Shown here piece after piece: positions 7,099 to 64,000 of a DNA stretch of 64,000 nt (positions within the stretch are counted from its first letter, which is position 1; every line of letters starts with the position of its first letter). The stretch comes from a virus (taxonomy: Duplodnaviria > Heunggongvirae > Uroviricota > Caudoviricetes): positions 171,468 to 235,467 of the IMG/VR virus record IMGVR_UViG_3300014204_000107. The stretch is one strand, 5' to 3'. The notes below the pieces were generated by a model that was given only the letters and a program-made list of their open reading frames with translations, was not told where the DNA came from and did not search any database. Both the position numbers and the translations under genes were made by a program.

Positions 7099-7308
7099 AT
7101 GAATAAAGCAGAATTAAAGCAATTGATAAAAGAAGAAGTTAGAAATGTGGTCAATGAATCATTTGATTCAGATATTTCATACCTTGAAGATAAATTAAGA
7201 CCGCTTGATTCTGAACAACAAGCTCGATTAATATGGATGTGGATAAAGCAAGATCATATTAATTTTAAACAATTTATTCAATTAGTTAAGTATTTAACGC
7301 GTGATTAA
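7099..7308 (+). CDS. Small protein with KQLIKEE leader (putative internal head protein)
   Basis: AGGAG RBS; starts MNKAELKQLIKEEVRNVVNE. Confidence 0.75.
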   Translation: MNKAELKQLIKEEVRNVVNESFDSDISYLEDKLRPLDSEQQARLIWMWIKQDHINFKQFIQLVKYLTRD

Positions 7309-7657
7309 TGAAGTTTTAAATATCAATGAATTAGCATTTAAGCAAGATGTTATTAGTGCCGGTGGTAAGATCTATAGCGTTGGTGGAAAGGTTCGTGATG
7401 AATTTTTAGGAAAAGAATCAAAAGATTTGGATATTCTTATAACTGGCATACCGTTTGATGAATTAGAGAAAATATTAAAGAAATATGGCAGTGTTAATAG
7501 CGTAGGTAAATCATTTGGTATTATAAAATTTAAGCAGTTCGGCGACACCGAAGAAGTGGATATCGCCATACCAAGAAAAGAATCGAGAAAAATTTATGCA
7601 TTCGTGATAAAACAACATCAACCTCCTATATATATTAAATATGGAGGTAAATTATGA
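7301..7657 (+). CDS. cca: tRNA nucleotidyltransferase (CCA-adding, class II), N-terminal fragment
   Basis: VGGKVRD...KDLD catalytic motif and DIAIPRKE; homology ends at the flexible loop. Confidence 0.85.
   Translation: MINEVLNINELAFKQDVISAGGKIYSVGGKVRDEFLGKESKDLDILITGIPFDELEKILKKYGSVNSVGKSFGIIKFKQFGDTEEVDIAIPRKESRKIYAFVIKQHQPPIYIKYGGKL
7621..7648 (+). promoter_or_regulatory. Hairpin occluding the endonuclease RBS
   Basis: ACCTCC (7621-7626) pairs with the SD GGAGGT (7643-7648), 5 nt before ATG 7654; contains a TATATATATTA promoter-like motif. Confidence 0.7.
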
Positions 7658-8553
7658 AGCATGGTACTTTAAAATGTCATATATGTGATCAAGAAATTGT
7701 TATAGTTGGAATTGGCTCCCATTATAAATGGAAACATAGAATGCTATTGAGAAAAGATCCAACTAATTATTTAGATTTTTTTAATTATAATTATCCAAAT
7801 TTAATTGATGATATTATTAAAGAATGTAATGAAAAAAAGATGTCAGCAAATCAATTAATAAAACGTAAATATAAATATATTGGTCCTGGATTAGGGTTGT
7901 TTTTAAGTAAATTATTAAAAGATAAAATAAAAATTACTGCGATGGACATGGATATCCATCGATTGAAACAACGAGATGCTACGTGCATTGAAAAACATGG
8001 CAAAATATATTCAGACGGATACACAAATAGGATAGCAAATTTTAAAAAAGACCCGGATTTTGCTAGAAAAGTAAGCTTATCTGGTTGGTCTGGCGAATTG
8101 GGTGATAAACGAAGAAAAAAAGAATCAGATAAATTTAAATCAGATGATTTTAAATTAAAAAGAATTCAAACATTGATAGATAAATATGGCACTCAATATG
8201 TGGGTGGTACATCAAATTTTCATAAACGAGTTAAATCTTTGCTAGAGAAACATAATATTATTACTGAATCTGAATGTGTAGTCAAAGGAACCGGATATAT
8301 TGCCGACGAAATTGACCATACACATAATATAGTTATAGAAATGAACGGTGACTTTTGGCATGCAAATCCAACTAAATTTGATTCTGATTTTGTAAATCCA
8401 ATTAACCATATGATAGCGAAAGATGTTTGGAAATATGATAAAAAAAGAAAAAAAATAATTGAAAAAAATGGATATTCTGTGTTTATAATATGGGAATCCG
8501 ACAACATTAATGAAAAAATAGAAGAATACAAGAGAATTTATGGCATTATTTGA
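7654..8553 (+). CDS. Free-standing homing endonuclease (Zn finger + Vsr/DUF559-like PD-(D/E)xK domain)
   Basis: CHIC...HYKWKH zinc finger; ADE...IEMNGDFWH...IWE nuclease motif; overlaps both cca halves. Confidence 0.8.
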   Translation: MKHGTLKCHICDQEIVIVGIGSHYKWKHRMLLRKDPTNYLDFFNYNYPNLIDDIIKECNEKKMSANQLIKRKYKYIGPGLGLFLSKLLKDKIKITAMDMDIHRLKQRDATCIEKHGKIYSDGYTNRIANFKKDPDFARKVSLSGWSGELGDKRRKKESDKFKSDDFKLKRIQTLIDKYGTQYVGGTSNFHKRVKSLLEKHNIITESECVVKGTGYIADEIDHTHNIVIEMNGDFWHANPTKFDSDFVNPINHMIAKDVWKYDKKRKKIIEKNGYSVFIIWESDNINEKIEEYKRIYGII

Positions 8554-9544
8554 TAATATACCAAATAATATAAAGATTGTAGATGATACTATCTATGGAG
8601 AAATAGATGATATTATGGGATATTTATCTAGATTTGGAACTGTAGAACTTGAATATACAGGTGGATATCAAGGATTTGAAGTTACATCTGATCACAATTT
8701 GCCAATAGAAAAGGATTTAGAACGTCGAGACTTTACAATTAATTCCATTGCAAAAGATGCAGAAGGTAATATAGTTGATCCATACGGCGGATTAATAGAC
8801 TTACAGAATAAAGTTATTAGAGTTACTAATCCAATAGCATTTTCCGAAGACCCATTAAGAATGCTTCGTGCAGTACAATTTGCTGCGCGATTTGATTTTA
8901 AGATAGAACCTAAAACATTGCAATTAATAAAAGAAAATGCACCTAAAATAAAAGAAATATCAGCAGAACGCATATTAATTGAATTTGAAAAAATTGTACA
9001 CAAAGGAGACCCAGTAGTTGGTATATATTGGTTAGATAAAACATTATTATTTAGCAATATATTTGATATACCATTTAATGGCAAATATAGTGACTTTCAA
9101 GATGTAGCAAATATAGCAGAATTTATATATTGTTGTTTAAAGAATACTGATATAATTATATCGGAATTTTTTAAAAATAAGATTCGGGGCAGTATTGAAG
9201 GAACAAAAAATGTTGAATCGTTAGAATATATAAGAAAATTAACAGATAATATTGTACATAATAGAGCTATTGCATCAATAATGTATAATAAATATCCAGA
9301 TATTGTTAATAGTGAACTTTTGCCAAATGCATTAAAAGATATATTTAATAGTTTTCGAGCAGAGCAATATCCAAGTGGTATTAATAAGTTAGATATAACA
9401 GGTAATGATATAATGCAATTAGGATTGAAAGGCAAACAAGTTGGTGATGCATTAAAATTAGCATTATTATCTATTTACAGCAATAAATTAAAAAATAGTA
9501 AGAATGATATTTTAAAATTTGTTGAAAATCTAAAATTGCCATAA
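8540..9544 (+). CDS. cca: tRNA nucleotidyltransferase (CCA-adding), C-terminal fragment
   Basis: DLERRDFTINSIA, DPYGG..DL, FSEDPLRMLRAVQFAARF, ISAERI, ITGNDIM motifs. Confidence 0.88.
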   Translation: MALFDNIPNNIKIVDDTIYGEIDDIMGYLSRFGTVELEYTGGYQGFEVTSDHNLPIEKDLERRDFTINSIAKDAEGNIVDPYGGLIDLQNKVIRVTNPIAFSEDPLRMLRAVQFAARFDFKIEPKTLQLIKENAPKIKEISAERILIEFEKIVHKGDPVVGIYWLDKTLLFSNIFDIPFNGKYSDFQDVANIAEFIYCCLKNTDIIISEFFKNKIRGSIEGTKNVESLEYIRKLTDNIVHNRAIASIMYNKYPDIVNSELLPNALKDIFNSFRAEQYPSGINKLDITGNDIMQLGLKGKQVGDALKLALLSIYSNKLKNSKNDILKFVENLKLP

Positions 9545-9571
9545 TTATATTAAATAGAATGGAGATTATCT

Positions 9572-9862
9572 ATGACGGATAAACAGTTAAAGCAATTAAT
9601 AAAAGAGGAAGTTAAGTTAGTTCTTGAAGATAGACGCGCCGAGATTGATGCAATTGTCAAATTAGACCATGCATTGGCAAGTGCTAAACAAGTAACTTTA
9701 CGAAATCAAGTATTAAAAGAATTATTTTATAGTAAAATAATAGCATTGCAAACGGAAATAGATGATTATTTATTTAAAGTGAACAATACACAACCAACAC
9801 AACTGGGTGCATTGCAAAATGATAGCCCAACCGCACGTGTGCAGTCATACAAATGGAAATAA
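9572..9862 (+). CDS. Small protein with KQLIKEE leader
   Basis: GGAG RBS; MTDKQLKQLIKEEVKLVLE. Confidence 0.72.
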   Translation: MTDKQLKQLIKEEVKLVLEDRRAEIDAIVKLDHALASAKQVTLRNQVLKELFYSKIIALQTEIDDYLFKVNNTQPTQLGALQNDSPTARVQSYKWK

Positions 9863-9875
9863 CAAGGAGATAAGC

Positions 9876-16543: not shown

Positions 16544-16573
16544 AAAGAACGTCTTTTGGCGTTCTTTTTTTTT
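16544..16573 (+). terminator. Intrinsic terminator
   Basis: AAAGAACGTC-TTTT-GGCGTTCTTT stem-loop followed by a T run. Confidence 0.8.
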
Positions 16574-16627
16574 GAGTTGTCCTATATTTATTGTTGCGTA
16601 ATAAACTTAAAACGTTACAATAAACGA

Positions 16628-37644: not shown

Positions 37645-37939
37645 ATGAAGTTAAAAGAATTAAAACAATTAATAAAAGAAGAGATATCCATTGTATTAAA
37701 AGAATACGGCGAAGATTCAGGTGGTCAAGATATGACATGGGGGTATTTATAATAGACCAGCGGAACATAAAGATAGTGGAAATACTGATTTTATTGAAAA
37801 AGGCAAGGAAGATTATGATGATGGTGTTCCTTTTGATGCATGTCCATATGCATCCGGCGTTAATAAATGGTATAATATTGATTTAGCTGAATATTGGAAG
37901 CGTGGGTGGCAATTGGCTAAAAAAGAAAGTGAAGAATAA
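37645..37939 (+). pseudogene. Leader-bearing RMF/CrpP-like protein with a +1 frameshift (not in ORF track)
   Basis: AAGGAG RBS; MKLKELKQLIKEEISIVLKE...; stop at 37752 unless one G is removed from G5 (37739-37743), giving ...KGKEDYDDGVPFDACPY...YWKRGWQLA. Confidence 0.65.
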
Positions 37940-38654: not shown

Positions 38655-38897
38655 ATGAACAAACAAGAATTAAAACAATTAATAAAAGAAGAAATAAATA
38701 ATGTGCTAAAAGAATCAGTTGCATCTATGGCTAAAGTTGATATATATTATAGATATAAAAATGGTAAAACTGGTAGTTTATTTATTACGCATGCAAATGT
38801 TGATTTAGAAGAAATTCTCAAGGAATATTTCACAGATACACAATATTTGTCAAGTGATACAATAATAGATTCTGTAACAATAGAGGAGATCAGTTAA
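38655..38897 (+). CDS. Small protein with KQLIKEE leader
   Basis: GGAG RBS; MNKQELKQLIKEEINNVLKE. Confidence 0.75.
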   Translation: MNKQELKQLIKEEINNVLKESVASMAKVDIYYRYKNGKTGSLFITHANVDLEEILKEYFTDTQYLSSDTIIDSVTIEEIS

Positions 38898-38898
38898 T

Positions 38899-39137
38899 AT
38901 GACACGCAAAGAACTTAAACAGTTAATAAAAGAGGAAATTAAGAGTGTCCTTAAAGAAGCAATAAAAAAACCGTTACACAAGAATTTGAAATTGGTGATG
39001 GCAAAATAGCAAAACCAGGGGATACTATTGTTTTAAGAGATAGAGATGCCGAACATTACTTTATAATTAAATTAAATGATAAAAATGTTTTTTCAATTTG
39101 GAAAAGAAAACCGTGGGTTGACTCCCATACAAAATAA
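38899..39137 (+). pseudogene. Leader-bearing small protein with a -1 frameshift (not in ORF track)
   Basis: GAGGAG RBS; MTRKELKQLIKEEIKSVLKEAIKK; stop at 39009 unless one A is added to A7 (38964-38970), giving ...TVTQEFEIGDGKIAKPGDTIVLR... Confidence 0.6.
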
Positions 39138-44500: not shown

Positions 44501-45359
44501 GATACCCAAAGCATTCCTGGGTTATGAAGAAGGCCTGAGTGCTAAGAATGTTTTATTAACGCAGGATGTAAGGTTTGCTCGCACAATAGAACGCGTTCAA
44601 CGTATTGTAGAATCTGAACTGTATAAAATAGCAATAATACATTTATATTCGCAAGGATATACTGGCGATGATTTAGTTAATTATAAGATTCAATTAACGC
44701 CATCTTCAATATTATATGAAGAAGAAAGAAATACATTATTAACTAATAAAGTTGATTTAGTTGGCAGAATTCGCGAGCAGAACTTATTACCTGATAAATA
44801 CATATATGAAGAATTATTTAATTTCAGTGAGCAGGAATGGCATCAGATGCGCAAGGATATGATTGAAGATTTAAAATGGCAATATAGAATAAAACAAATT
44901 TCTGACGAAGGTGTTGACCCATATGAGGAAGCAAATAAGATTAAAAACTTATTAACAAAGCAAGAAGGTGCTGGTGAGTTTGATTTAGCAAAAGGTGAAG
45001 AACAAGGCGGTGGTGCAGGGGAAGACATATTTGGTGGTAGCTCATTTGGCGGATTAGGTGGTGGCACTGAAACTGAAGGTGGAACGGAAGATATATTTGG
45101 TGCAGGAGAAGTAGGTGGGGCAGAAGGAACGCCCCCAACAGAAGGTGGACCAGAAAATATTACCGCTGGATATAAGAGTGGTAAAAATTTATTATATTCT
45201 CCAAATAATATAATAAGATTAAAATTAACAAACTATATTAAACAGCGGGGCAATACTAAATCATCAAAGTATATATTGTCTGAAGTACTCAACCAATTAG
45301 AGCATGAGCAGGAAGATATTTTTAACTCTGGCTATTTTGACGAAAAAAACTTAGAATAA
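41559..45359 (+). CDS. gp20: Portal protein (T4 gp20-like) with two inteins
   Basis: ALDIYADE, KYGDF, PYGRS, RAPERR..KVDIGNIPP, MLEDFYLP, AIKIPKAFLG; ~636 aa after splicing. Confidence 0.93.
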   Translation: MEEEKQSAFFDGLNKMMSSAVMIRGTTDKKLRVIDLNKVQVQSNLETNRLIDRFARVIMPIRTYGYDYSYAFQGSRIEIYRDYEQMDMYPILSSALDIYADECIGSATIVPMVDGRKITIKELYDNNEKNFLIYGIDANSKKIKIIEASHIAYNGKKQVYKITLDDSTEIKCTANHEWVRFDNELIRTDKLAEGDWLCALPQEYQIIKIEKLEGLSDVYDIVNAGDNHIFAIETNDGGKLFTHNCTLKNLYGRIVEIKTDKDYIADSLNNLFYDVLNIDFNLWAWVRNLVKYGDFWLKMDITEKLGITNVIPLSPYGVQRVENPNNPEMTEFHYDAALGNYMYGQSLQKFKNYEIVHFRLLSDMNYLPYGRSIFESARQLWKQIVLLQDAMLIHKLMRAPERRVIKVDIGNIPPAEVDNYMNSVINKMKKVPYLDEKTGQYNLRFNLMPVAYYTNIPLLDGRTITIKQLAEETKKGKKNYVYSIDRENDNKIVSGEVQRCELTKKDADIVRIWLDDDSYIDFELEHPVMLRTGEYKAAKDLIENDSLMPFYSKFSNEKGIKDYEMIFDPADQIFKYTHRVIAEQYNIDNYIENNHVVHHADFNRKNNIPENLDCKMTFDDHIKYHRDNIKLWLNTLTPQQWEIINKKRSDTWKKNRILGKNKLWNEGETKETNELVRLLGENISKTFTPEKKKKYAARLRGKLNPVHSKWIQENFVPYERTEEHKQVLREKMSGDNNPNYGKTWEEIHGKEKAEELREKVSNVSRDKFLKNNPMKTDAQKKRASKVMKFENGKRWSDNNFKEKVTIAMSHTYDSWLIEQIKKQIKLCNLKNLNEIVNHLNKCNDIVSYFAILNETKKGTGKFSRHSIAKFAIRLGYKNIAELILDVKNNYIINHKVKKVEFLTEKIDVYCMLVKDYHNFAIDSHGGNIRDGIFVKNTMLEDFYLPVRPGQVNSSIDTLQGLVMDFTPDLEFLLSQMFAAIKIPKAFLGYEEGLSAKNVLLTQDVRFARTIERVQRIVESELYKIAIIHLYSQGYTGDDLVNYKIQLTPSSILYEEERNTLLTNKVDLVGRIREQNLLPDKYIYEELFNFSEQEWHQMRKDMIEDLKWQYRIKQISDEGVDPYEEANKIKNLLTKQEGAGEFDLAKGEEQGGGAGEDIFGGSSFGGLGGGTETEGGTEDIFGAGEVGGAEGTPPTEGGPENITAGYKSGKNLLYSPNNIIRLKLTNYIKQRGNTKSSKYILSEVLNQLEHEQEDIFNSGYFDEKNLE
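41865..42290 (+). mobile_element. Mini-intein (142 aa) in portal
   Basis: C1 (CIGSAT), block B CTANH, block F VYDI, ends THN before Cys. Confidence 0.9.
42903..44366 (+). mobile_element. Non-canonical intein (488 aa) with HNH endonuclease in portal
   Basis: Starts PVAYYTNIPLLDG; HH.DFNRKNN.PENL HNH motif; NUMOD3-like repeats; block F VYC; ends VKN before Thr. Confidence 0.85.
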
Positions 45360-45407: not shown

Positions 45408-46256
45408 ATGAAAAGCAACCACGCAAAGCTTAAAAATACGGGCATATTATTTGAATTGCTTGTTAGGCAGGCTACAAGTGATATAATTTCCGAAAAAGAA
45501 TCAAAAGCAGTTAATATTATTAGACGATTCTTTAAAGAAGGCACGGAACTTAATAAGGAGCTAAAGCTATACAAAACATTAACTGAAGATAAATACCACG
45601 ACGCCAGAAAAGCTGAGAATTTTATTGAGGTAGTATTGTCTGAACGCAAGAAAATTAATAACACCCAATTAAAGAGTGAAACATATAATCTTGTTAAAGC
45701 AATTAATGAAGCATATACTATTGATTTTTACCAAGCAAAAATTAATAATTATAAAGTATTAGCTTCAACTTATAATTTATTTGAATATGTATTGGGACGC
45801 TCGGTACCTCCAACTGATGTGGTAAATTCAAAATTTACTATATTAGAACATATCGCAGCCAAACAAGCAGAAAAGAATGAAGTAAAAGATAAGGTGCTTG
45901 AAGCTTATGACCAGCAAGATAAAGATATTAGATTGCTCGCTTATAAGTTAATGATTGAGAAATATAATCAGAAATATAACGCGCTTGATAACAGGCAAAA
46001 ACGATTATTAAGAGAATATATTAATAGTGTTACTGATAGTCCTAAATTAGCTGAATTTGTTAACAATGAAGCAAACATTGTTAAATTTGAATTAAAGAAA
46101 TTATTGAAGAAAGTGGACGATGAAGTAATGCAAGTTAAGCTTGAAGAAACAATAAATCAAATTGATAAGCAAGTAATATGCAAATCTGTAAAAGAAGACC
46201 ATATATTGCAGTTAATGAAATATTATGAATTGGTAAAAGAATTGCAACAAATATAA
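45408..46256 (+). CDS. Helical head-module protein (putative prohead core)
   Basis: 282 aa, helical, between portal and protease. Confidence 0.55.
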   Translation: MKSNHAKLKNTGILFELLVRQATSDIISEKESKAVNIIRRFFKEGTELNKELKLYKTLTEDKYHDARKAENFIEVVLSERKKINNTQLKSETYNLVKAINEAYTIDFYQAKINNYKVLASTYNLFEYVLGRSVPPTDVVNSKFTILEHIAAKQAEKNEVKDKVLEAYDQQDKDIRLLAYKLMIEKYNQKYNALDNRQKRLLREYINSVTDSPKLAEFVNNEANIVKFELKKLLKKVDDEVMQVKLEETINQIDKQVICKSVKEDHILQLMKYYELVKELQQI

Positions 46257-47161
46257 TGGAACATAAAAGAATATATACAAAATCATTACATGACCGCTTT
46301 AGACGCTCAATTGAGTATGATAGTACTTTAACAAAGCCGAAAAAGTCGCCAAAGAAACGAGCACAAGAGCATGAATGGGATGAAATGAATAAAGAAAGCG
46401 GGCATAAAAATCCAAAAGATATAGAGGAAAGCAATATGAATCAAGAAGAACAATTAAGAGAAATGATTCGTGCAGCAATAAAGGAAATATTTGCTGAAAC
46501 AAACGAAGAAGAGCAACTTAATGAATTTATGGCAACGGGAGCACCAGCAGGAGCTGCACCAGCAGCAGGTGGTTCTAATGCCGCACAAGGTCCATACCAA
46601 ACGCCTGCAGCATTTAATAGAAAGAATACAAGCACTGATAATAAAGGTACTAAATCTTCTACTAATGCTGGATGGACTAAAGTCGATGAAAGCCAACCAC
46701 ATAGGTGGGGCATTAAATACGGTGAAGCATCAACTGAATATGAACGTGCAAACCCAAGAATGTATAGGCTAAAGAACGAAGTTAAAACTATTAATGAAGC
46801 AGTAAAGAAATCAGCAAACGATGATAATTTTGAAAAGTTATACAGGAAAGCATGTAAGCATTTTGAAGTTGAAGAATTAGTAGATTTAAAGCCTGAAAGG
46901 TATGAAGAAGCTATTGCATATATGAATAAACTAACAGATGCAGATGATGCAAGAATAACTAAACAACAAGTTAGAAAAGCAGCAATAAAAGAAGCATTTG
47001 GGCAAATAATAACTGAACAGTCATTTACAATTGTAAATAATGATAATATTGATAAGATTGCCGATTATATTGCAAAATATAGGACTGATAAAACTATGAC
47101 CCCCCATAGAATTGCACGAGACATATTACGAATTATTGAAAATATGATGAATGGAGTATAA
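46256..47161 (+). CDS. Hypothetical head-module protein
   Basis: Internal leader-like MNQEEQLREMIRAAIKEIFAE with its own RBS at 46436; multiple L/IxE sites. Confidence 0.6.
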   Translation: MEHKRIYTKSLHDRFRRSIEYDSTLTKPKKSPKKRAQEHEWDEMNKESGHKNPKDIEESNMNQEEQLREMIRAAIKEIFAETNEEEQLNEFMATGAPAGAAPAAGGSNAAQGPYQTPAAFNRKNTSTDNKGTKSSTNAGWTKVDESQPHRWGIKYGEASTEYERANPRMYRLKNEVKTINEAVKKSANDDNFEKLYRKACKHFEVEELVDLKPERYEEAIAYMNKLTDADDARITKQQVRKAAIKEAFGQIITEQSFTIVNNDNIDKIADYIAKYRTDKTMTPHRIARDILRIIENMMNGV

Positions 47162-47164: not shown

Positions 47165-48877
47165 ATGATTAAACAATCAATAGGGTATTCAGCAATACCA
47201 TTTATAGTAACACCACAACAGTTACAAGAGTCAATGCGTAAGAACAATGGCATTGTTATTGTATCCGGTGTTATACAGCGTGCTGATTCATTAAACCAAA
47301 ATAAGCGCAAATATCCTAAACAAATATTATTGCGTGAAGTAGAAAGGTATAATAGTGATTTTATTAAACAAGGCAATGCCCTAGGTGAGCTTGATCACCC
47401 GGACTGCGTTCTTCCTGATACCAAGATACTTACAAAAGATGGTTGGAAATATATTAAAGATATATCAGAAGACGAAATAGTTGCAACACTGAATACCGTT
47501 ACTAACGAATTAGAATATCAACAAATAGTGCGAAAAATAGAACAGCATTATGCTGGTGAAATGATTGAATTTAAAAATGCAGTTTTTAGTGCATGTGTGA
47601 CGCCAAATCATAAATTTTATGTTATGCGAGGGGTCGACCGGCAGCGTGGTGAGTTTATTGCAGCAAATGAATTATATAAAACTGACGTAATTAATAAAAA
47701 ATGCAAATGGCAGGGTACTGACCAATTAGTTATGACATTTCCAGCAACTGGTATTAAAGAATCTTATTCTGTTGATACGGAGGCATTTTGTAATTTTTTG
47801 GGTTGGTATATAGCAGAAGGATATATTAGTCAATATAAAGGTAATATGGTGTATATTAGTCAATCTAAAAAAGAAGGCAAAGAACAAATAATTGCAATGT
47901 TAGATCAAATGCCATATCACTGGAATTATTATGTTGGTAAAAATGATGAGTGGGTATTTTATATTATTGATAAGGCATTATATGAATATTTAAAACCATT
48001 GGGTGGCAGTTATGATAAACATATACCGCAAGAAATCAAAAATCTTTCACCCAAATATTTAAAAATATTATTACGTTCATTAATGTTAGGAGATGGTACT
48101 ACAAATGGAAATGATTATTATACTGTTTCTCCTCAATTGGCCAGTGATGTTAGTGAGATAATTATTAAATGCGGATTATCAGCATCTATTACTGAGATTG
48201 ATAGAATTGATAATTATTATGTTATTAAAAATAAAGAAACTGGTGAAATTGAAACAATTAATAATATTTATTGGTACACCAAACCAAAATATGCAATTAA
48301 AGAAAATTTTGAAATTGTTGATAAAATAAAAAAGAAAAACGGAAAGATAATGTATATAATAAGAACCAAAGATTCTTCACATTATTTTTTTAATGAAATG
48401 GATAAAACCATTATTGATTATGATGGTATGGTATATTGTGTAGAAGTCCCAAACCATACTATATATTTAATGCGCGATGGTAAACAATTTTGGTCTGGCA
48501 ATTCAAGTATCGTTGAATTAAAAAATGCTTCACACCGCATATTAGAAGTATGGTGGAGTGGTGATGATTTATTAGGTAAGATAGAAATATTGCATGATGT
48601 AACACCGGCAGGGCACATATTATATAAATTATTTGAACGTGGCATTAAAGTAGGTATATCATCAAGGGGATTAGGTTCAGTAAAGCCTATTAATGAAGAC
48701 GGGGCAGTGGAAGTACAAGATGACTTTGAATTAGTTGCTTGGGACTTTGTTTCCAATCCATCTACCCAAGGTGCATATATGACAATGTTGCATGAAGGCA
48801 TTGACCCAGCAAATATGAACTTACATAAATTTATGAAAATGGAATCTATTATAAACTCAATATTAAGAGGTGAATAA
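47165..48877 (+). CDS. gp21: Prohead protease (T4 gp21-like) with intein
   Basis: NQNKRKYP, ALGELDHP, ASH, VGISSRGLGS, DFVSNPS; ~204 aa after splicing. Confidence 0.93.
   Translation: MIKQSIGYSAIPFIVTPQQLQESMRKNNGIVIVSGVIQRADSLNQNKRKYPKQILLREVERYNSDFIKQGNALGELDHPDCVLPDTKILTKDGWKYIKDISEDEIVATLNTVTNELEYQQIVRKIEQHYAGEMIEFKNAVFSACVTPNHKFYVMRGVDRQRGEFIAANELYKTDVINKKCKWQGTDQLVMTFPATGIKESYSVDTEAFCNFLGWYIAEGYISQYKGNMVYISQSKKEGKEQIIAMLDQMPYHWNYYVGKNDEWVFYIIDKALYEYLKPLGGSYDKHIPQEIKNLSPKYLKILLRSLMLGDGTTNGNDYYTVSPQLASDVSEIIIKCGLSASITEIDRIDNYYVIKNKETGEIETINNIYWYTKPKYAIKENFEIVDKIKKKNGKIMYIIRTKDSSHYFFNEMDKTIIDYDGMVYCVEVPNHTIYLMRDGKQFWSGNSSIVELKNASHRILEVWWSGDDLLGKIEILHDVTPAGHILYKLFERGIKVGISSRGLGSVKPINEDGAVEVQDDFELVAWDFVSNPSTQGAYMTMLHEGIDPANMNLHKFMKMESIINSILRGE
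47405..48502 (+). mobile_element. LAGLIDADG intein (366 aa) in prohead protease
   Basis: C1 (CVLPDT), VTPNH, LGWYIAEG and LMLGDG motifs, VYCVEV, ends WSGN before Ser. Confidence 0.92.
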
Positions 48878-48878: not shown

Positions 48879-49115
48879 ATGAATAAACAAGAGCTAAAGC
48901 AACTTATAAAGGAAGAAGTTAGAACAACATTAAATGAATCATTTAATAGAACAGCATATAATTGGGAAATAAATAATACATCTGGTGAGGTTCTTGCTAA
49001 TTCAATGAAAGAAGCAATACGTTTAGCAGTAAATGATTATCTCGAATATATGGGTGATAATATAGATGATAGCGGTCCAGAATATTTTGAATTACATATA
49101 GAATCGATATATTAG
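48879..49115 (+). CDS. Small protein with KQLIKEE leader
   Basis: GAGGTG RBS before ATG 48879; MNKQELKQLIKEEVRTTLNE. Confidence 0.75.
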   Translation: MNKQELKQLIKEEVRTTLNESFNRTAYNWEINNTSGEVLANSMKEAIRLAVNDYLEYMGDNIDDSGPEYFELHIESIY

Positions 49116-51084: not shown

Positions 51085-51360
51085 ATGAAAATACTTGAAT
51101 TACGCAAATTAATTAAAGAGGAAGTTGAAAAATCACTTACTGATTTTAATGCATTACCAAAGAAATTTGAAGATGTTGAAATTGGCAAAGAATTTGGTGT
51201 ATTTGATACAGATTGCGGTGGCATTGTAAAATGGAAAAAAATATCTGAAACAGAAGCAAAACTTGTGTCAAAGCAGGAAAAAGAAAGCGATATTAAAAAA
51301 GGCGATGAAGCAAATTTCTCAAAGACTACAACTGTGCAAGTAAAAGAATCAAAAAAATAA
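51085..51360 (+). CDS. Small protein with leader variant
   Basis: AAGGAG RBS; MKILELRKLIKEEVE. Confidence 0.7.
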   Translation: MKILELRKLIKEEVEKSLTDFNALPKKFEDVEIGKEFGVFDTDCGGIVKWKKISETEAKLVSKQEKESDIKKGDEANFSKTTTVQVKESKK

Positions 51361-51376: not shown

Positions 51377-51622
51377 ATGGATTTACAACCAAAGAAAGGA
51401 AAAGTAAGCTATTTTGGCAACAATGTAAAAGTAATTAATGGTAACATTGATGAAGCATTACGCAGATTAAAAGGAGCAGTAAAAGATTCTGGTGTTATGT
51501 TTGAATTAAAGCAACGGCAAGAGTTCTTACCGCCATCTGCCATAAAAAGAGAAGTTAAACAAAAGGCTATTAGAAAGCAACAATTAATTAGTTTACGCGA
51601 AAAAGAAGACAGATTAATATAA
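51377..51622 (+). CDS. rpsU: Ribosomal protein bS21
   Basis: VKV.NGNIDEALRRLK..VKDSGV..ELKQRQEFLPPSAIKR signature. Confidence 0.88.
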   Translation: MDLQPKKGKVSYFGNNVKVINGNIDEALRRLKGAVKDSGVMFELKQRQEFLPPSAIKREVKQKAIRKQQLISLREKEDRLI

Positions 51623-51792: not shown

Positions 51793-53025
51793 ATGGAATT
51801 TTCCAAAGATTTTATTAAAGAAGCTGTAGCAGATTCAAAAGCATTACGCGAAACTGCATTGATAAATGCAAGAAAACAACTTGCTGAAGCATTTGAACCC
51901 AAAATAAGAGCAGCAATTTCAGACCAAATTGGTAAAGAAGTCGACGAAATGCCGATTGATCCAATTGACGCTGAGTTTGAAGGAATACAAGATTTAGCAA
52001 CAGATATGCCGGTAGACACAGAAGGCTTGCCAGTAGGTGAACAACCAGAAGAAATGGAACAAGAAAGCCTTGGCATTAGTGACGAAGACGTAGATATGCT
52101 ATTAAAAGAACTTGAAGGTGACGAAGAAGAAATGCCGAAAGACGCCGAACCAGAAGCAGAATTAGCAGCACCGGAAGATTCACCAATTTCTGCCGATGAT
52201 TTAGCAGGCGACGAATTTGGCGGAGACCAAGAAATTGATTTAGATAATCAGCAACTTGATGTAAATGTAGATGATGCAACTGCACCAGAAGCAGACGAAG
52301 TAGATGATTTTGATTTTGAAATTGAAATGGACGACGAAGGTGGCGAAACACAAGAAATTACAGTAGAGCCAGGTGAAACCGTAACATTAAAAATTAATGC
52401 TGTGCCTGAAGGTGAGGAAGCACCAGAAAATGATATTGATATGGGCGATGACGAAGAAGTTATTACATTAGATGACGAAGAACCCGTTAAAGAAGAAGGC
52501 GTGCAAACATTTAGTGATGACGACGAAATCATTTCATTAGAAGAATTAGCTAATGACTTAGCATCTAATGAACAAGAAGACCAAAAATATAAACTTGAAC
52601 TTGAAGAAGCTAATAAAAATTTAGCTGACGCATATAACGTAATCGAAGAATTGCGTGCAAAAATAAACGAAGTGGCATTGTTAAATGCAAAACTATTATT
52701 TACGAATAAACTGTTCAAATACGGTTTAAACGAACAACAAATGGTTCGTATTGTTAACTCATTTAATAAAGCAGAATCACTACGAGAGTGTAAATTAATT
52801 TATAATACACTCAATGAGTCTCTTAAGAATAAGCAAGTTCTTAAAGAGAAGAAAGAAACCACCTTGTTAGAACGTGCAGGTGTGCAATCAGCTGCAAGGC
52901 CAACAAGAACAACTAATGAAAGAACACTATTGAAAGAAACTGCTGAAACGCAAGATGATATTCAATACATACTTCCGCCAGAAGTTGTAGACAAATTACA
53001 AAGATTAGCAAAAATAAAGCAATAA
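51793..53025 (+). CDS. Prohead scaffold/core protein (gp22-like)
   Basis: Very acidic, coiled coil, immediately upstream of the capsid gene; EVALLNAKLLFTNKLF; many LxE sites. Confidence 0.8.
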   Translation: MEFSKDFIKEAVADSKALRETALINARKQLAEAFEPKIRAAISDQIGKEVDEMPIDPIDAEFEGIQDLATDMPVDTEGLPVGEQPEEMEQESLGISDEDVDMLLKELEGDEEEMPKDAEPEAELAAPEDSPISADDLAGDEFGGDQEIDLDNQQLDVNVDDATAPEADEVDDFDFEIEMDDEGGETQEITVEPGETVTLKINAVPEGEEAPENDIDMGDDEEVITLDDEEPVKEEGVQTFSDDDEIISLEELANDLASNEQEDQKYKLELEEANKNLADAYNVIEELRAKINEVALLNAKLLFTNKLFKYGLNEQQMVRIVNSFNKAESLRECKLIYNTLNESLKNKQVLKEKKETTLLERAGVQSAARPTRTTNERTLLKETAETQDDIQYILPPEVVDKLQRLAKIKQ

Positions 53026-53042: not shown

Positions 53043-54737
53043 ATGGCTGAAAATTTAATGAACGTTTTCGCAAATGACGCAAAGGCAGCCTATCGTAATC
53101 AACATGAACAATCCAAGAAACTCATTAAGAAATGGGAACGCACTGGTTTGTTAGAAGGTATCAAACATGAATACGATAGATCGACTATGGCAGTCTTGCT
53201 TGAAAACCAAGCTCGCCAGTTAGTGACAGAAGTATCACGTACTGGTACTGCACAATACTCAGAAGAATGGAGTGGCGTAGCCCTTCCATTAGTTCGACGT
53301 GTATTTGCAGAAATCGCTGCAAAAGAATTCGTTTCTGTGCAGGCAATGACACTTCCAAGTGGACTTGTATTCTACTTAGACTTCAAGTATGGTAGCGGCG
53401 TAAGTGGGTTTACTACATCAGAAGGTACCAGCGACCAATGGGGCTGGCAAGAAAATTCTGTATATGGTAAAACTTCAGTAGCAGGTGAACCTTCAGGTGG
53501 TCTTTATGGTGCAGGCAAATTTGGATATTCTATTAACCAATTTACTACTCATTCTGCAATTGTATCAACCGGCTCAGCAGCTTGGTCAGATGTAAACTAC
53601 GATCCTACATTGTCAGCATCAATTGGACAATATAAGAAAGTTGTTATTGATATGGCAACTGCAAACATGGACCCGGAAGGCGTTCGTGCTTTTGCATTGA
53701 TCGATGGTGCCGGTACTGCTATGAACTTACCTACATATACTGCACCAGTATATGCAAGCAGCGCATGGTCACGAATCCAAATGATTGTAACTAATTCAAT
53801 TGAAATGGCTCCGTCAACTAATACGGCATCCATTGAATATAACAAACAACCAGGCGCATATAGCCGTGGTGATTTTGAAGCAACCGGTGACCCTTCATGG
53901 GGTAACGGAACAGGTGTGGAACAATATGATCCATCAGCTGGTAGTGTTGGTACTAATGCACTTCAAATTCCTGAATTAAATGTATCCTTACGTTCAGTTC
54001 CTATTGTTGCTAAAACAAGAAAATTGAAAACCGTATGGACACCAGAATTTGCTCAGGACTTAAATGCATATCACTCAATTGATGCTGAAGCCGAATTAAC
54101 TTCATTGTTAAGTGAGTATATGACCTTAGAAATTGACTTGGAAATCCTTGACATGCTTATCGAAAATGCTATTACAGTAGATTACTGGAATGCACAACCA
54201 GGTAAGATAATTGGAGCTACTCAAACTAATGGAGAATCAGATTGGCAAGCACAAGGTTTTGGCAGCACTTCAATGTTCTACACTCAACCAACATGGTTCC
54301 AAACTTTAGGCATTAAATTGCAGAAAGTTTCTAATTTAATCCACAAGAAAACCTTACGCGGTGGTGCAAACTTTATCGTATTAGGTCCTACTGTAGCAAC
54401 TATTATCGAATCGATCCCTGGCTTCGCTGGAGATACTGACGGTAATCAGGTGAAATTTGAAGCTGGTATCCAACGTATTGGTAGTCTTTCAAAGAGATAT
54501 ACGGTTTACAAAAACCCATATATGAAAGAAGATACAATCCTTATGGGATTCCGCGGTACTCAGTTCTTAGAAACTGGTGCTGTTTTCGCTCCATATATTC
54601 CATTGATTATGACGCCATTGATCTACGATCCAGTGAACTTTACACCTAGAAAAGGCGTAATGACGCGTTATGCAAAGAAAGTCGTTCGCCCCGAATTTTA
54701 TGGTAAAATTTTTGTAGGTGGAACAAACTATATTTAA
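53043..54737 (+). CDS. gp23: Major capsid protein (T4 gp23-like)
   Basis: LLENQ, PLVRR, VSVQAM..PSGLVF, AKTRKLK, EFAQDLNAYH.IDAEAEL, APYIPL, DPVNFTPRKGVMTRY. Confidence 0.96.
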   Translation: MAENLMNVFANDAKAAYRNQHEQSKKLIKKWERTGLLEGIKHEYDRSTMAVLLENQARQLVTEVSRTGTAQYSEEWSGVALPLVRRVFAEIAAKEFVSVQAMTLPSGLVFYLDFKYGSGVSGFTTSEGTSDQWGWQENSVYGKTSVAGEPSGGLYGAGKFGYSINQFTTHSAIVSTGSAAWSDVNYDPTLSASIGQYKKVVIDMATANMDPEGVRAFALIDGAGTAMNLPTYTAPVYASSAWSRIQMIVTNSIEMAPSTNTASIEYNKQPGAYSRGDFEATGDPSWGNGTGVEQYDPSAGSVGTNALQIPELNVSLRSVPIVAKTRKLKTVWTPEFAQDLNAYHSIDAEAELTSLLSEYMTLEIDLEILDMLIENAITVDYWNAQPGKIIGATQTNGESDWQAQGFGSTSMFYTQPTWFQTLGIKLQKVSNLIHKKTLRGGANFIVLGPTVATIIESIPGFAGDTDGNQVKFEAGIQRIGSLSKRYTVYKNPYMKEDTILMGFRGTQFLETGAVFAPYIPLIMTPLIYDPVNFTPRKGVMTRYAKKVVRPEFYGKIFVGGTNYI

Positions 54738-56499: not shown

Positions 56500-57030
56500 A
56501 TGAACCGTGATAATTTAAATATAGTAAAAAAAGGCATTAGACGCATTATTTGTGAAGTATTAGATGAAACATTGAATACTATACAAAAAGTGGGGTGGTC
56601 TTATGATGGTGAAGCACAGTTCACAGCCAGCAATGGTAAAGAATATAATATTCAAATATATCCACTCCATTTGATAGTTGTGAATTCGAGGGCGAAGAAA
56701 TTATTAAATATTGGAAAGAAGCTACTGGGGGATGATTTATGGTTAAAGTTTTATGCATTTGGATATATTATTGGGTTTGCTGATGAATATGAACGAGATA
56801 CCATATTAGGCACTGGTAATGCTGCAGAAATTTTTAGTATTGTTGGTCATGCTGTTATAGATAGAATAAAGGAGAAAGATATTGAATATATTTGCTTCGA
56901 TGCAAAAGAACCAAGTAGAAAAAGATTATATGCAAGGCTTGCCCAATTATTAGCAAAAGAATTAAATTATAATTTAGTAATATCCCCAGATGGTGGTATA
57001 TTTTATTTATATACAAAGGAGTTAGCATGA
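56500..57030 (+). CDS. Hypothetical protein with leader-like N-terminus
   Basis: IRRIICEVLDE; C-terminal GTGNA..IF....F.AKEPSRKRLY. Confidence 0.6.
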   Translation: MNRDNLNIVKKGIRRIICEVLDETLNTIQKVGWSYDGEAQFTASNGKEYNIQIYPLHLIVVNSRAKKLLNIGKKLLGDDLWLKFYAFGYIIGFADEYERDTILGTGNAAEIFSIVGHAVIDRIKEKDIEYICFDAKEPSRKRLYARLAQLLAKELNYNLVISPDGGIFYLYTKELA

Positions 57031-58151
57031 AACTGAAAGAATTACGGCAATTAATTAGAGAATGCATTAATGAAGAATTGCAATCGAATACTAAATTTGA
57101 AATCATATTTCGTAGTGATATTGATGATGATGTAGTAGTGCAAGAAAAGTTTAATTCTAAGCAGGAAGCAATGGATTGGGCGGATAGTTGTGAATATAAT
57201 TATGACGATATTGTATTAGATGATGGTGGTAATGATATATGGAAAACATTTTATAGATATTACAACCCAGAAGATGGTGAGAATCATTATACTGGCTATG
57301 AAGTACGCCCAGTGATGCCAATAAAAGAAGAAACAAATAAATTTGAAATGGTGCAATATAAAAATAAAAAATATTATGCAAATGCAAATGATATTAATGA
57401 TAGCACTATTAGTAAATTATTTTTATATGTTGACTCACAATTGAATAATGTTGTTAAAATTAATGGTAAATCATTAATGGTTAGCAAGTCTGAATTAGCT
57501 GATAAATTAAAAGAAGAAATAAATAATAATGTATTTTATAATCGGGGTGATGTTATAAGATTAAATGCAGATGCAGAAGTATCATTGAGCTATAAAGAAG
57601 GCTCGCCGCCAAAGACTTTAATAAAAAATGCATTGTGGGTGGTAGACGATTATGAGCTAGATGAATTTAGTGATATTGGAGGACAAATTTTAAATCTATC
57701 GACATTTGAGCCTGTGGGGGGTTATAATGCCGGTTCTTTTTGTTGTTTTGTGCACAGCGACGATGTTAAAGAAAAATCAAAAGCATACCGAATGAAAGAT
57801 AATATTAAAGAAGAATATATAGCAAATTTTAATGAAGAAGTGCCAGTTGAAGTAGTATTGGATAAATCAAATCATGCAGGAGAGCGTCAATATAGGCACG
57901 GGGAAGAAAATATTATATCAGATGAAGAAATAGTAGAACATATTAAAAGGGCATCTAAAAAAATATTGCGTGCAATGATATTAAATAGTATCAATATTGG
58001 TGACTCAATGTTAGTGCGAGACCAGCAAAAGGATTTAAATGTAGTTTGCATGTCCGCAAGAAGTGGTGCGGGTGTTAAGATAATTATTATAACAGTAATG
58101 CGTAAGCATGGTTTCTTTGCAAAACCAGGAACTAAAATAGTTGATATTTAA
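57027..58151 (+). CDS. Leader-bearing multi-domain protein
   Basis: AAGGAG RBS; MKLKELRQLIRECINEE; internal [IL]KEE linkers. Confidence 0.72.
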   Translation: MKLKELRQLIRECINEELQSNTKFEIIFRSDIDDDVVVQEKFNSKQEAMDWADSCEYNYDDIVLDDGGNDIWKTFYRYYNPEDGENHYTGYEVRPVMPIKEETNKFEMVQYKNKKYYANANDINDSTISKLFLYVDSQLNNVVKINGKSLMVSKSELADKLKEEINNNVFYNRGDVIRLNADAEVSLSYKEGSPPKTLIKNALWVVDDYELDEFSDIGGQILNLSTFEPVGGYNAGSFCCFVHSDDVKEKSKAYRMKDNIKEEYIANFNEEVPVEVVLDKSNHAGERQYRHGEENIISDEEIVEHIKRASKKILRAMILNSINIGDSMLVRDQQKDLNVVCMSARSGAGVKIIIITVMRKHGFFAKPGTKIVDI

Positions 58152-58163: not shown

Positions 58164-58409
58164 ATGAACAAAACAGAATTAAAGCAATTAATTAAAGAGG
58201 AAATTAAAGTTGTATTAAAAGAATCTAATTATACTGAAATGTTTAGAGAATTATTGAATGATATACGAGACGATATTGCAAATAATGTATCTATTCATGA
58301 CGTACCATATGCGTTAGGCGATACCTGGGACGTAGAAATAGATCCAATATCGATATCGGCCGCTGTTGACGCAGTATTTAAAACATTGCATAATTATGAT
58401 TTATTATAA
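58164..58409 (+). CDS. Small protein with KQLIKEE leader
   Basis: AAGGAG RBS; MNKTELKQLIKEEIKVVLKE. Confidence 0.75.
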   Translation: MNKTELKQLIKEEIKVVLKESNYTEMFRELLNDIRDDIANNVSIHDVPYALGDTWDVEIDPISISAAVDAVFKTLHNYDLL

Positions 58410-58418: not shown

Positions 58419-58853
58419 ATGAATAAGCAAGAATTAAAGCAATTAATTAAAGAAGAATTATCAAAATATGTTGGTGGTTTGTTTCAATCCAAGGAAGGAG
58501 ATTATATATCAATAGGAATTGAAGGCAGCAGATACAGGCATTTTGGTAAAGTTGTTAAGATACTTGATGATAAAAAAGTTAAAGACGATAATGGCAATAT
58601 ATTCTATCCGGTCGGAAGATTATACAGAGGCGGCAGCACTATATTTCAAAAACAATATAATAATAAAAATGTTGTATCAGCAAAGATTATAACACAACAG
58701 GAATTTGATAATCAGCATAAGCAAATTAAAGTTAATTTTATAAGACAGTTTGATTATAATAGAGTAGATATTGCAACAATAGAGGCTATGATAGATTTGC
58801 TCCCTGTTAAACAAGCAAGCACATTAAATACATCAAGATTTAAAGACAAATAA
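58419..58853 (+). CDS. Small protein with KQLIKEE leader
   Basis: AAGGGA RBS; MNKQELKQLIKEELSK. Confidence 0.72.
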   Translation: MNKQELKQLIKEELSKYVGGLFQSKEGDYISIGIEGSRYRHFGKVVKILDDKKVKDDNGNIFYPVGRLYRGGSTIFQKQYNNKNVVSAKIITQQEFDNQHKQIKVNFIRQFDYNRVDIATIEAMIDLLPVKQASTLNTSRFKDK

Positions 58854-61653: not shown

Positions 61654-61668
61654 AACGCAGGAGGCACC

Positions 61669-62235: not shown

Positions 62236-62536
62236 TATGAAATTGGCTGAATTGAAACAATTGATTAAAGAATGCATTAATGAAGAAATAATTGCAGAGG
62301 GGGCAAGAATTAGATGGCGAAATTTACGAGTTGGTGATTATTTAATATGCATTAAAAATAAATTTGATGCTAAATTAGAGGTAGGGAAAAAATATAAAAT
62401 TATAAGTGTGTCTGAAAAAATGCATAGAATTTCAATTGAAATAGATGATAATCATATACCACACGGAATCACTGTTCCATCACCATATTTAACTCAATTT
62501 AGATTAATAAAAGATTATATAGGAGAATAATATGAA
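62210..62536 (+). repeat. 32-nt direct repeats flanking a leader cassette
   Basis: taataaaagattata(c/t)aggagaataatatgaa at 62210-62241 and 62505-62536, 31/32 identical. Confidence 0.85.
62237..62530 (+). CDS. Small leader-bearing protein (SH3-like cargo)
   Basis: MKLAELKQLIKECINEEIIAE; VGDYLICIK....LEVGKKYKI. Confidence 0.72.
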   Translation: MKLAELKQLIKECINEEIIAEGARIRWRNLRVGDYLICIKNKFDAKLEVGKKYKIISVSEKMHRISIEIDDNHIPHGITVPSPYLTQFRLIKDYIGE

Positions 62537-62786
62537 CAAATTAGAATTAAAACAATTAATTAAAGAAGAAGTTAGAATTGCATTGCAAGAAGATTCAAAC
62601 GAAGAAAGATTGGCAAAATTGAAGCAATCTGACCCAAAAATATTTCAAATAATAGACGCAGTAAGGGCAGCCGATAAAATACCAGAATCAGAAATTGATT
62701 ATATTGGTGAGCGTGATTATATAGCATATAATGCCGTGCTAAATATTGTTAGGGTTAAAAGAATTGAAACGCCATATGACGATTAA
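62532..62786 (+). CDS. Small protein with KQLIKEE leader
   Basis: MNKLELKQLIKEEVRIALQE. Confidence 0.75.
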   Translation: MNKLELKQLIKEEVRIALQEDSNEERLAKLKQSDPKIFQIIDAVRAADKIPESEIDYIGERDYIAYNAVLNIVRVKRIETPYDD

Positions 62787-62811
62787 TTATTAAATAAAAT
62801 AGTAGGATTAT

Positions 62812-63312
62812 ATGCCCTTATTTGGCGGTAAAAGAGATATAAGTTTATTTAGATTCATTAACAGGGAGTTAATTAATAAGATAGTTGACACGGCAGTTGA
62901 TGTATATAAGATAAGTTTATCTTCAACCAAGGCAAATTTATATGGAGAATCAACTAATAAAATTTATAAAGTAGCATTACGTTTACATTGTTTAGTACAT
63001 GACTTAAGAGAGCAAGAAATGAGCTATGAGGAATATGGCGTCACTGTAAACCAAAACGTTAATTTTACATTCTTAAGAGATGAATTAATGGATAAACAAT
63101 TAGTAATGGAGGCAGGAGATATAATTCAATGGAATGAAAAATATTGGGAAGTAGATACAGTAGTTGAAAATAAATTGTTTATAGGCAAAAATCCAGATAC
63201 AAATAAAGATTATGATGGCACGCATGGTTGGGATGTGGGTATAACGTGCAATACACATATGACAAGAAGAACAAAACTTAATATTGAACGTGCCAGAGCA
63301 GGCAATAATTAG
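62812..63312 (+). CDS. gp14: Neck/head-closure protein (T4 gp14-like)
   Basis: NLYGE, GDII.W...YWEV motifs; downstream of gp13. Confidence 0.7.
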   Translation: MPLFGGKRDISLFRFINRELINKIVDTAVDVYKISLSSTKANLYGESTNKIYKVALRLHCLVHDLREQEMSYEEYGVTVNQNVNFTFLRDELMDKQLVMEAGDIIQWNEKYWEVDTVVENKLFIGKNPDTNKDYDGTHGWDVGITCNTHMTRRTKLNIERARAGNN

Positions 63313-63321
63313 GAGTATAAT

Positions 63322-64000
63322 ATGAAATTAAAAGAATTAAGGCAATTAATAAGAGAATCTATTCAAGAAGTATTACTTGAAAGCTACGGTGACGGACTTA
63401 AACAGTTTGAAACAGATAATTATCATTTTAATAATCGAAATTCTTTTGATATTGCTGTTAAAAATATCAATAAATATTATAAAGATATAGATGTTGGTCA
63501 TTTTGATATGATTATTTCCCTTCCAAAAGGCAGTAAAATAGTTGATAAATTTGGTGTATCTGCTGATAGTTATAAACTAATTGATGAGGTGGTTCAAGAA
63601 ATATTGATGGCATCTCCTATGGAAAGCAAGCATTTTTATGATTCTCACCGAGATATCATATTACAAGATATAGAGCAATGGGCAAGTGAAAGCATGACAC
63701 TAACAGATGTAGCATTGGAGTTAGGATGGGACGAAGAGTCCGCAGCAAATAATTCTGATAGTACATTATATGGTGATTATGCAATACATATTGCAGGTAA
63801 TTACGATAAATATATTGGTAATCTAGAAGAGATTGAAGGAATGATAGATTTAAGAAATGATGTTAATGAAGAAGTATATAAAACAGGCGTAGATTCATCC
63901 AAATTTACTACTGCCGAAATAAAAGTAAAAATTAAACAGTTAGAAGATGATATAGAAGCATCAAAGAAAAGAAATGGGTCGGATGAATTCGTTCAAAGCA
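63322..64000 (+). CDS. Leader-bearing protein, 3'-truncated by the window edge (not in ORF track)
   Basis: AGGAG RBS; MKLKELRQLIRESIQEVLLESYG...; frame appears open to the window end. Confidence 0.72.
   Translation, partial: MKLKELRQLIRESIQEVLLESYGDGLKQFETDNYHFNNRNSFDIAVKNINKYYKDIDVGHFDMIISLPKGSKIVDKFGVSADSYKLIDEVVQEILMASPMESKHFYDSHRDIILQDIEQWASESMTLTDVALELGWDEESAANNSDSTLYGDYAIHIAGNYDKYIGNLEEIEGMIDLRNDVNEEVYKTGVDSSKFTTAEIKVKIKQLEDDIEASKKRNGSDEFVQS

Follow-up and report, generated by a model that had tools for sequence, protein, structure and literature searches.

A shared 20-residue N-terminal leader on unrelated proteins of an uncultured T4-like phage, a candidate capsid-targeting tag

INTRODUCTION

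In phage T4 a handful of internal proteins are known to carry a capsid-targeting sequence (CTS). IPI is among them and counteracts restriction after delivery together with the DNA. The T4 protease gp21 cleaves after L/I-x-E, and the 10 N-terminal residues of IPIII are enough for targeting to the head; within the CTS, residues 4 and 7 serve targeting and residues 8 and 10 serve processing, and gp22 co-purifies with the T4 internal proteins (PMC9026906). T4 CTS propeptides of 10–20 residues mediate association with the core (PMC5694885), and the internal proteins of T-even phages are diverse, the CTS alone being conserved (PMC3012670). A review suggested that the CTS principle could be general in T4-like phages (PMC9026906). 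Here we describe a leader of 20 residues at the N-terminus of otherwise unrelated open reading frames (ORFs) in a 64,000-nt stretch of phage DNA, positions 171,468–235,467 of IMG/VR record IMGVR_UViG_3300014204_000107 (the window; coordinates are those of the window unless given as genome positions), and we compare it with the T4 system and with other processed leaders.

The T4 IPII and IPIII N-termini were confirmed as MKTYQEFIAE. The leader motif L6-x-x-L9-I10-x-E12 has the spacing of T4 Y4-x-x-F7-I8-x-E10, with two additional N-terminal residues. A search of the T4 genome with the leader hidden Markov model (HMM) gave no match at E≤1. Resemblance to the T4 CTS thus lies in a short motif and is not demonstrable homology.

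RESULTS

A discrete 20-residue module heads 25 unrelated proteins

A preliminary description of the window had named 13 ORFs as starting with M-x3-[EQ]L[KR][QK]LI[KR]E[ECS], and all 13 do so when checked at their coordinates (Table 1). Eight of them (7099, 37645, 38655, 38899, 48879, 58164, 62532 and 63322) end the leader in [LV]-x-E at residue 20 and two more at E19 (9572) and E21 (62237), and a ribosome-binding site (RBS) of GGAG/GAGG/AGGA type precedes 12 of the 13, also as described. The family, first put at a minimum of 13, is real and larger. A regular expression retrieved 21 ORFs genome-wide, and the HMM built from these retrieved 25 ORFs at E≤1e-4. All 25 leaders start at Met1 and lie on the + strand of the 299,351-bp genome, where no significant internal or minus-strand match was obtained with the HMM. 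Past residue 22 the 25 proteins are mutually dissimilar (best pairwise E 0.15), in line with the complete divergence of the bodies noted before.

Residues M1, L6 and I10 never vary in the alignment of leaders, and conservation at Q8, L9 and E12 is at least 90%. Two subtypes occur, M[NT][KR]xELKQLIKEE[VI]..[VL].E and MKLxEL[KR]QLI[KR]E[CS]I[NQ]E. The preliminary description had read the ends of the leaders at E19 to E21 and overlooked the best conserved protease-type site, I10-x-E12: I-x-E12 is present in 24 of the 25 genome leaders and [LIVM]-x-E20 in 13. Two or three more ORFs (genome positions 272119, 287402 and 165463) carry decayed leaders.

A further set of leaders was obtained from IMG/VR with a degenerate DNA pattern for residues 5–13 only, which hit at least 115 stretches, with 128 matches listed. 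As this set was chosen solely on residues 5–13, the E20 motif is independent of the selection. Among the matches listed, 56 of 82 distinct leaders carry [LIVM]18-x-E20, and 0–2 of the 82 have such a motif at each later offset. Past position 20–21 no residue exceeds about 30% in these leaders, and a larger HMM-selected set agrees. This collapse of conservation right after [LIVM]-x-E20 shows the leader to be a module of its own, 20 residues long and sharply bounded at its C-terminal end. The leader helix is amphipathic with a hydrophobic stripe, as judged by a hydrophobic moment of 1.82 compared to 0.82 ± 0.41 for shuffles.

Selection acts on the leader peptide

The identical peptide ELKQLIKEE is encoded by 11 ORFs, which share a mean of 23.0 of its 27 nt; 22.7 of 27 are expected when each codon is drawn independently from the codon usage of the genome. 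The DNA 5′ of the leader ORFs has nothing in common beyond the Shine-Dalgarno sequence (SD). Since synonymous sites are saturated and only the SD is shared upstream, selection acts on the leader peptide and not on the DNA. With synonymous sites saturated, the conservation is not accounted for by recent duplication, gene conversion or an RNA element.

A 32-nt direct repeat (31/32 identical; 62210–62241 and 62505–62536) lies at two neighbouring leader ORFs, 62237 and 62532. It spans the 3′ end of the preceding gene (the two upstream proteins end in IKDY[TI]GE), the SD and the ATG, and is likely the footprint of a cassette duplication or insertion.

Leader ORFs are linked to head genes

The 171–256 kb block of the genome, which contains head, neck, sheath and baseplate genes, holds 19 of the 25 leader ORFs. 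The gap to the preceding gene is −4 to 27 nt for most leader ORFs, which are therefore probably co-transcribed with their neighbours. An upstream TATA[TA]A sequence is no rarer for leader ORFs (8/25) than for other virion-block genes (12/54), compared to 26/275 genes elsewhere.

The linkage was assayed in relatives by comparing the proteins of the genome, with leaders removed, to 115 IMG/VR stretches fetched solely for the leader pattern. Among the 115 stretches listed, the commonest neighbours were the large terminase TerL (37), the portal (30), the 282-aa protein encoded after the portal (20) and the protease (15). In the TerL stretches among these, all 38 leaders are on the same strand as TerL; 18 of the 38 stand at most 3 kb upstream of it, a position equivalent to that of ORFs 37645, 38655 and 38899, and 8 are within the portal-to-protease interval. 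The Gp23 capsid protein and/or the T4 portal were found on 12 of 24 long leader contigs, including the one at least 90% complete, these contigs being fragmentary with a mean estimated completeness of about one third.

A head-module protein family has a similar N-terminal architecture

The protein encoded at 46436..47161 has an L-N-E site standing before a conserved G-x-Y-x-T-P-x-A-F motif. It belongs to a family with the motif [ST]TG-x-V-x-GY-x-TP-x-AF, whose members begin with a helix (typically MNVESFIKKLKE) and have L-x-E immediately ahead of the conserved mature part. One relative has the canonical leader as the N-terminal helix of its family member. Members were found by motif search (window 46436–47161, L055:3934, L005:8424–8645 and many of the loci L012–L091); tblastn of the 46436 protein against the head loci of relatives gave no match, and no Pfam or PHROG family was found for these head-module proteins. 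Among the genome proteins of at least 100 aa, the excess of [LIV]-x-E is highest for 46436..47161 (z 3.3), and the 282-aa protein ranks eighth.

The phage encodes T4-type head machinery

The window comes from a phage genome represented by one contig, 299,351 bp long with 32% G+C and with nearly all genes on the + strand. The phage is an uncultured, distant relative of T4. By capsid protein (about 52% identity) the nearest cultured phages are Microcystis phage Mel-JY01 and Flavobacterium phage immuto, followed by Rhodothermus phage RM378, and hundreds of capsid-protein relatives at 52–58% identity are present in IMG/VR. A megablast search of phage records with the head region gave no match. The phage DNA is present in a landfill metagenome, probably its source, and in a groundwater metagenome, and no RNA dataset is among the listed holders of the window DNA.

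All the components that the T4 CTS system requires are encoded: a protease of gp21 type, a scaffold core of gp22 type and a shell of gp23. The ORF at 47165, put forward earlier as a gp21-like protease, is indeed assigned to Peptidase_S77 by Pfam and is the presumed processing enzyme for the leaders. V61-T-E63 of the capsid protein aligns with the maturation site L-T-E65 of T4 gp23, and immuto and Mel-JY01 have [IV]-S-E; these aligned sites indicate that the cleavage specificity of the prohead protease is probably conserved with T4. At the scaffold N-terminus, F7-I8-K9-E10 is spaced as in the T4 CTS. For the clade, the scaffold consensus is DLLKEAIAD, and leader residues 8–14 (QLIKEEI) resemble its DLLKEAI part; the N-terminus of T4 gp22 is MLKEQLIAE. 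Pfam and PHROGs gave no family for the head-module proteins 45408, 46256, 49128, 50614 and 51793. The place of the 282-aa protein directly after the portal is that of gp67/gp68 in T4.

The portal, interrupted by intein(s) with an HNH domain, is 1266 aa long compared to about 620 in relatives. A phage bS21 ribosomal protein (51377–51622; Pfam Ribosomal_S21, 2e-12) is encoded in the head operon, in the protease–scaffold interval, and Mel-JY01 has an RpsU gene at the equivalent place. Elsewhere in the window, 16556–27406 is one ORF of 3616 aa with a TTG start, an SbcC-like gene on one side and baseplate-region genes on the other. The CCA-adding enzyme (7301–9544) is seemingly split into a PolyA_pol head domain (7301–7657) and a tRNA-nucleotidyltransferase body (8540–9544), with an endonuclease-like ORF (7654–8553) between the two.

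Table 1. Leader ORFs and head genes of the window, with two tagged enzymes encoded outside it
Feature	Coordinates	Strand	Size	Remarks
Leader ORF	7099..7308	+	69 aa	V18-N-E20; no Pfam family
Leader ORF	9572..9862	+	96 aa	L18-E19; leader retained in metagenome orthologue P0017
Leader ORF	37645..37752	+	35 aa	Ends just past G5 run; [LV]-x-E20 present
Leader ORF	38655..38897	+	80 aa	L18-K-E20
Leader ORF	38899..39009	+	36 aa	A_AAA_AAA run at codons 22–24; [LV]-x-E20 present
Large terminase (TerL), T4-type	39903..41546	+		Pfam Terminase_6N; three leader ORFs 1.0–2.3 kb upstream
T4-type portal	41559..45359	+		Portal_T4; intein(s) with HNH domain inside
Conserved head-module protein, directly after portal	45408..46256	+	282 aa	Seen in 20 of the 115 leader loci listed
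Head-module protein	46436..47161	+		Start M61 of ORF 46256, own RBS; divergent leader-like N-terminal helix
Prohead serine protease, gp21-type	47165..48877	+		Peptidase_S77; LAGLIDADG intein inside
Leader ORF	48879..49115	+	78 aa	L18-N-E20; immediately 3′ of protease gene
Leader ORF	51085..51360	+	91 aa	I10-K-E12, no E20
gp22-like acidic scaffold	51793..53025	+		Scaffold alignment; N-terminus with F7-I8-K9-E10
gp23-type major capsid protein	53043..54737	+		Pfam Gp23, 2.8e-70
Leader ORF	57027..58151	+	374 aa	MKLKELRQLIREC subtype, I14-N-E16
Leader ORF	58164..58409	+	81 aa	L18-K-E20
Leader ORF	58419..58853	+	144 aa	Sole site I10-K-E12
Leader ORF	62237..62530	+	97 aa	I19-A-E21
Leader ORF	62532..62786	+	84 aa	L18-Q-E20; 32-nt junction in front shared with ORF 62237
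Leader ORF	63322..64000	+	435 aa in total	Continues 629 nt past the window; L18-L-E20; no homologue found
Leader-tagged SET domain (3e-11) + AAA_33/zeta-toxin-like P-loop kinase (1e-18)	genome 243339–244313 (L003:8339–9313)		324 aa	Outside the window
Nucleotidyltransferase-like leader protein	genome 242212		256 aa	Outside the window

The leader is virus-specific and widespread

A leader profile of the first 40 residues detected 476 clusters at E≤1e-3 among 1.84 billion representatives (50% identity), and in 146 of the 165 protein clusters inspected a copy starts at residue 1. Internal copies in metagenome proteins mostly have a Met, as expected of fused tandem genes or over-extended gene calls. 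Second, internal or C-terminal leader copies are carried by metagenome proteins P0003, P0004, P0013, P0019, P0020, P0027, P0038, P0044 and others. Proteins with extra copies may be polyproteins cut at the leader junctions. Of the 128 IMG/VR matches listed, 96 are preceded by a Met at a distance of exactly four codons; the majority of the remainder are a variant with the Met 6–8 codons upstream.

When 596 Gb of genomes from bacteria and archaea were scanned with the same 9-residue DNA pattern, 41 scattered internal matches came up, the sole leader-like one resembling a viral contig ORF. Chance as the origin of the shared leader is thus excluded, and the tag is virus-specific. An equal occurrence of the motif on host proteins, which the preliminary description had named as contrary evidence, was rejected on this search.

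The HMM, applied to relatives as had been proposed, detected three leader ORFs in immuto (immuto35A_156, _175 and _190) and weak ones in LR756508, with no match in HTVC008M, RM378 or Mel-JY01. A fourth immuto ORF, _198, has an N-terminus that resembles the leader by eye. A tblastn search of phage records with the 24-aa leader gave no match at E≤10, the query being probably too short. Relatives L158 (IMGVR_UViG_3300046004_002614) and L096 contain arrays of 5–7 leader ORFs per ~3.5 kb. A full-text literature search returned no paper on the leader peptide.

The tag is an add-on to diverse cargo

The bodies behind the leader (the cargo) range from 15 to 415 aa. The tagged SET and kinase fusion adjoins the leader-tagged nucleotidyltransferase-like protein (242212) and a leader-tagged phrog_3666 protein (242987), both genome positions; if packaged, these three proteins would be injected enzymes. 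Structural relatives of the nucleotidyltransferase-like cargo have 229–238 aa, compared to 256, and align from residue 17–26 onward, and metagenome relatives of the cargo at genome position 144347 begin at the end of the leader. The tag is therefore an add-on. The first module of ORF 57027 recurs within a NUDIX-containing metagenome protein; homologue searches gave one partial relative for this ORF and none for ORF 63322. For most cargo, no family was found in Pfam or PHROGs, and an effector role of the cargo is therefore proposed by analogy with T4 IPI and Alt.

Two short ORFs were inspected further. Behind 37645, which has the G5 run, the +1 frame is open to 37939, and behind 38899, with the A_AAA_AAA run, the −1 frame is open to 39137; neither frame has its own start codon, and each occupies the space up to the following gene. 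Contigs from an independent groundwater sample show the two runs unchanged. The two loci could represent programmed frameshifting, yielding a leader-only peptide and a leader–cargo fusion, or shared pseudogenes. An RMF-like cargo behind 37645 found no Pfam support at E≤0.05.

DISCUSSION

A T4-type capsid-targeting propeptide

We favour the explanation that the leader is a T4-type capsid-targeting propeptide, which would load varied cargo into the prohead and be removed by the protease; on the patterns described above we regard this as probable, with real room for doubt. Residues 1–12 (M-x-x-x-E-L6-K-Q-L9-I10-K-E12) would act like the 10-residue T4 CTS (M-K-T-Y4-Q-E-F7-I8-A-E10), followed by an 8-residue extension ending in the second [LIVM]-x-E at residue 20. 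Tagged proteins would be made together with the head genes and would dock, through their amphipathic helix, onto the prohead's gp22-like scaffold core, perhaps by mimicking the helix at the N-terminus of the scaffold. Next, the S77 protease would cut after E12 and/or E20, or after E16 in the MKL...REC subtype, and the freed cargo would remain in the head and enter the host with the DNA. The explanation is preferred because each of its rivals misses at least one of three observations: the sharp [LIVM]-x-E20 edge, the saturated synonymous sites and the linkage to terminase, portal and protease. Capsid targeting had been put forward in the preliminary description, and its support now includes the strictly N-terminal tag, selection on the peptide, the CTS spacing, the sharp edge and the linkage to head genes.

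Several observations weigh against capsid targeting. The setting among virion genes had been overstated: beyond the 19 ORFs in the virion block, 6 of the 25 lie outside it, where one neighbours glycosyltransferase-like and RNA-ligase-like genes and the other five follow an esterase-like gene, and ORFs 7099 and 9572 adjoin genes for nucleic-acid enzymes (CCA-adding enzyme, RuvC-like, primase and SbcC-like). About one third of the leaders have no [LIVM]-x-E20, and the leader has no detectable homology to its T4 counterpart. ORFs 37645 and 38899 encode just 15–16 residues past the tag if no frameshift occurs, and cargo charge is mixed with no clear signal (median pI 8.0, 11 of 25 acidic). A few metagenome proteins have internal leader copies without a Met, so that the leader helix can also work inside a chain. 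In addition, the literature yields no virion proteomics or N-terminal data for any carrier and likewise no proteomics paper for immuto or Mel-JY01.

Other explanations

The internal and repeated copies in some metagenome proteins, the amphipathic stripe and the position of some leader ORFs beside tail, baseplate or non-structural genes would all suit an uncleaved docking or oligomerisation helix, attaching varied small proteins to another late structure or hub (e.g. a different virion part or an assembly chaperone), or to each other as coiled coils, with no loading of the head. We find this unlikely. Conservation in the leader stops sharply at a protease-type [LIVM]-x-E20, and the leader geometry is that of the functional residues of the T4 CTS. 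In relatives, moreover, the genes most closely linked to leaders are those for terminase, portal, head-module protein and protease, not tail genes, and the canonical leader fills the propeptide slot of the head-module protein.

A common leader with a fixed end on hypervariable bodies is also the layout of precursors of ribosomally synthesised and post-translationally modified peptides (RiPPs), and the leader might be a recognition tag for another enzyme or for turnover, i.e. a RiPP-like leader, an N-terminal degron or a chaperone tag timing abundance. However, the neighbours enriched around leaders are head-morphogenesis genes, with no candidate maturase co-occurring; unlike RiPP cores, the cargo is up to 415 aa long and folded enzymes are part of it; and the sole protease-type motif belongs to the S77 enzyme that the phage itself encodes. 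This makes an enzyme or turnover tag improbable.

A nucleic-acid element would be either a recombination cassette that shuffles genes or a translation-initiation region for high expression, which might be connected with the phage bS21. In its favour are the strong SD before nearly all copies, the bS21 gene in the head operon and the 32-nt junction common to two adjacent cassettes (31/32 identical). Against these stand a synonymous divergence as high as codon usage permits, upstream DNA that is unconserved beyond the SD, and a conservation that follows amino acids and helix periodicity over 60 nt across phages of about 55% capsid-protein identity, and we consider such an element very unlikely. 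Finally, a diverged paralogue family whose similarity survives at the N-terminus only, without a common leader function, would explain the clustered, tandem genes (genome 142–144 kb and 241–244 kb; window 58–63 kb) and the one cargo that has a paralogue with a decayed leader, but it is very unlikely too, since the bodies differ in fold and family (SET + kinase, nucleotidyltransferase-like, orphans of 15 to 415 aa) and a neutral remnant would not keep L6 and I10 in hundreds of clusters while being random past residue 20.

Significance

If the tag works as the T4 CTS does, delivery of packaged proteins is a large and diversifying strategy, with 25 cargo genes in this genome and at least 476 protein clusters in public data. 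Injected effectors of uncultured phages, i.e. take-over or anti-defence factors of the first minute, could then be listed from metagenome sequence alone, and a second natural targeting tag would be at hand for loading proteins into T4-type capsids. Immuto (vB_FspM_immuto, grown on Flavobacterium sp. LMO8) provides a culturable carrier of the leader.

A wider reading, which we put forward tentatively, is that the leader could be a portable, virome-wide address label with which a large environmental T4-like clade injects hundreds of unrelated, fast-evolving proteins. With similar reserve, the injected cargo might then include the SET-domain methyltransferase/P-loop kinase fusion and the nucleotidyltransferase, and tandem or internal leader copies might mark polyproteins cut inside the head.

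Comparison with known systems

RiPP precursors combine a short core with a modifying enzyme, whereas the cargo here spans 15–415 aa, includes enzymes and has head genes as neighbours. The ejection or inner-body propeptides of phiKZ, 201phi2-1 and SPN3US are closer, as many head-internal proteins of these phages are clipped by a T4-related protease (PMC5694885, PMC9026906), with multiple cleavage sites and with paralogues that have common N-termini. However, those propeptides are mostly longer than 100 residues, have no single portable consensus tag and are cut at S/A-x-E or A-x-E, in phages without a gp23/gp22-type head module, in contrast to a leader of 20 residues that ends in [LIVM]-x-E.

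The closest system is the T4 CTS of IPI, IPII and IPIII, with the related propeptides of Alt and gp24. Both tags are strictly N-terminal on unrelated bodies and share the pattern hydrophobic-x-x-hydrophobic-I-x-E, homologues of gp21, gp22 and gp23 are present here, and enzyme cargo is possible, as for T4 Alt. The CTS principle itself is textbook T4 biology. What seems to be new is the 20-residue tag, its copy number per genome and its environmental spread, on none of which a paper was found in the literature. The leader, known here from sequence alone, differs from the T4 CTS in having 20 residues with two successive sites (E12 and E20) where T4 has 10 with one, in its 25 carriers in this genome as opposed to a handful in T4, and in its presence in hundreds of clusters from low-G+C environmental T4-like phages.

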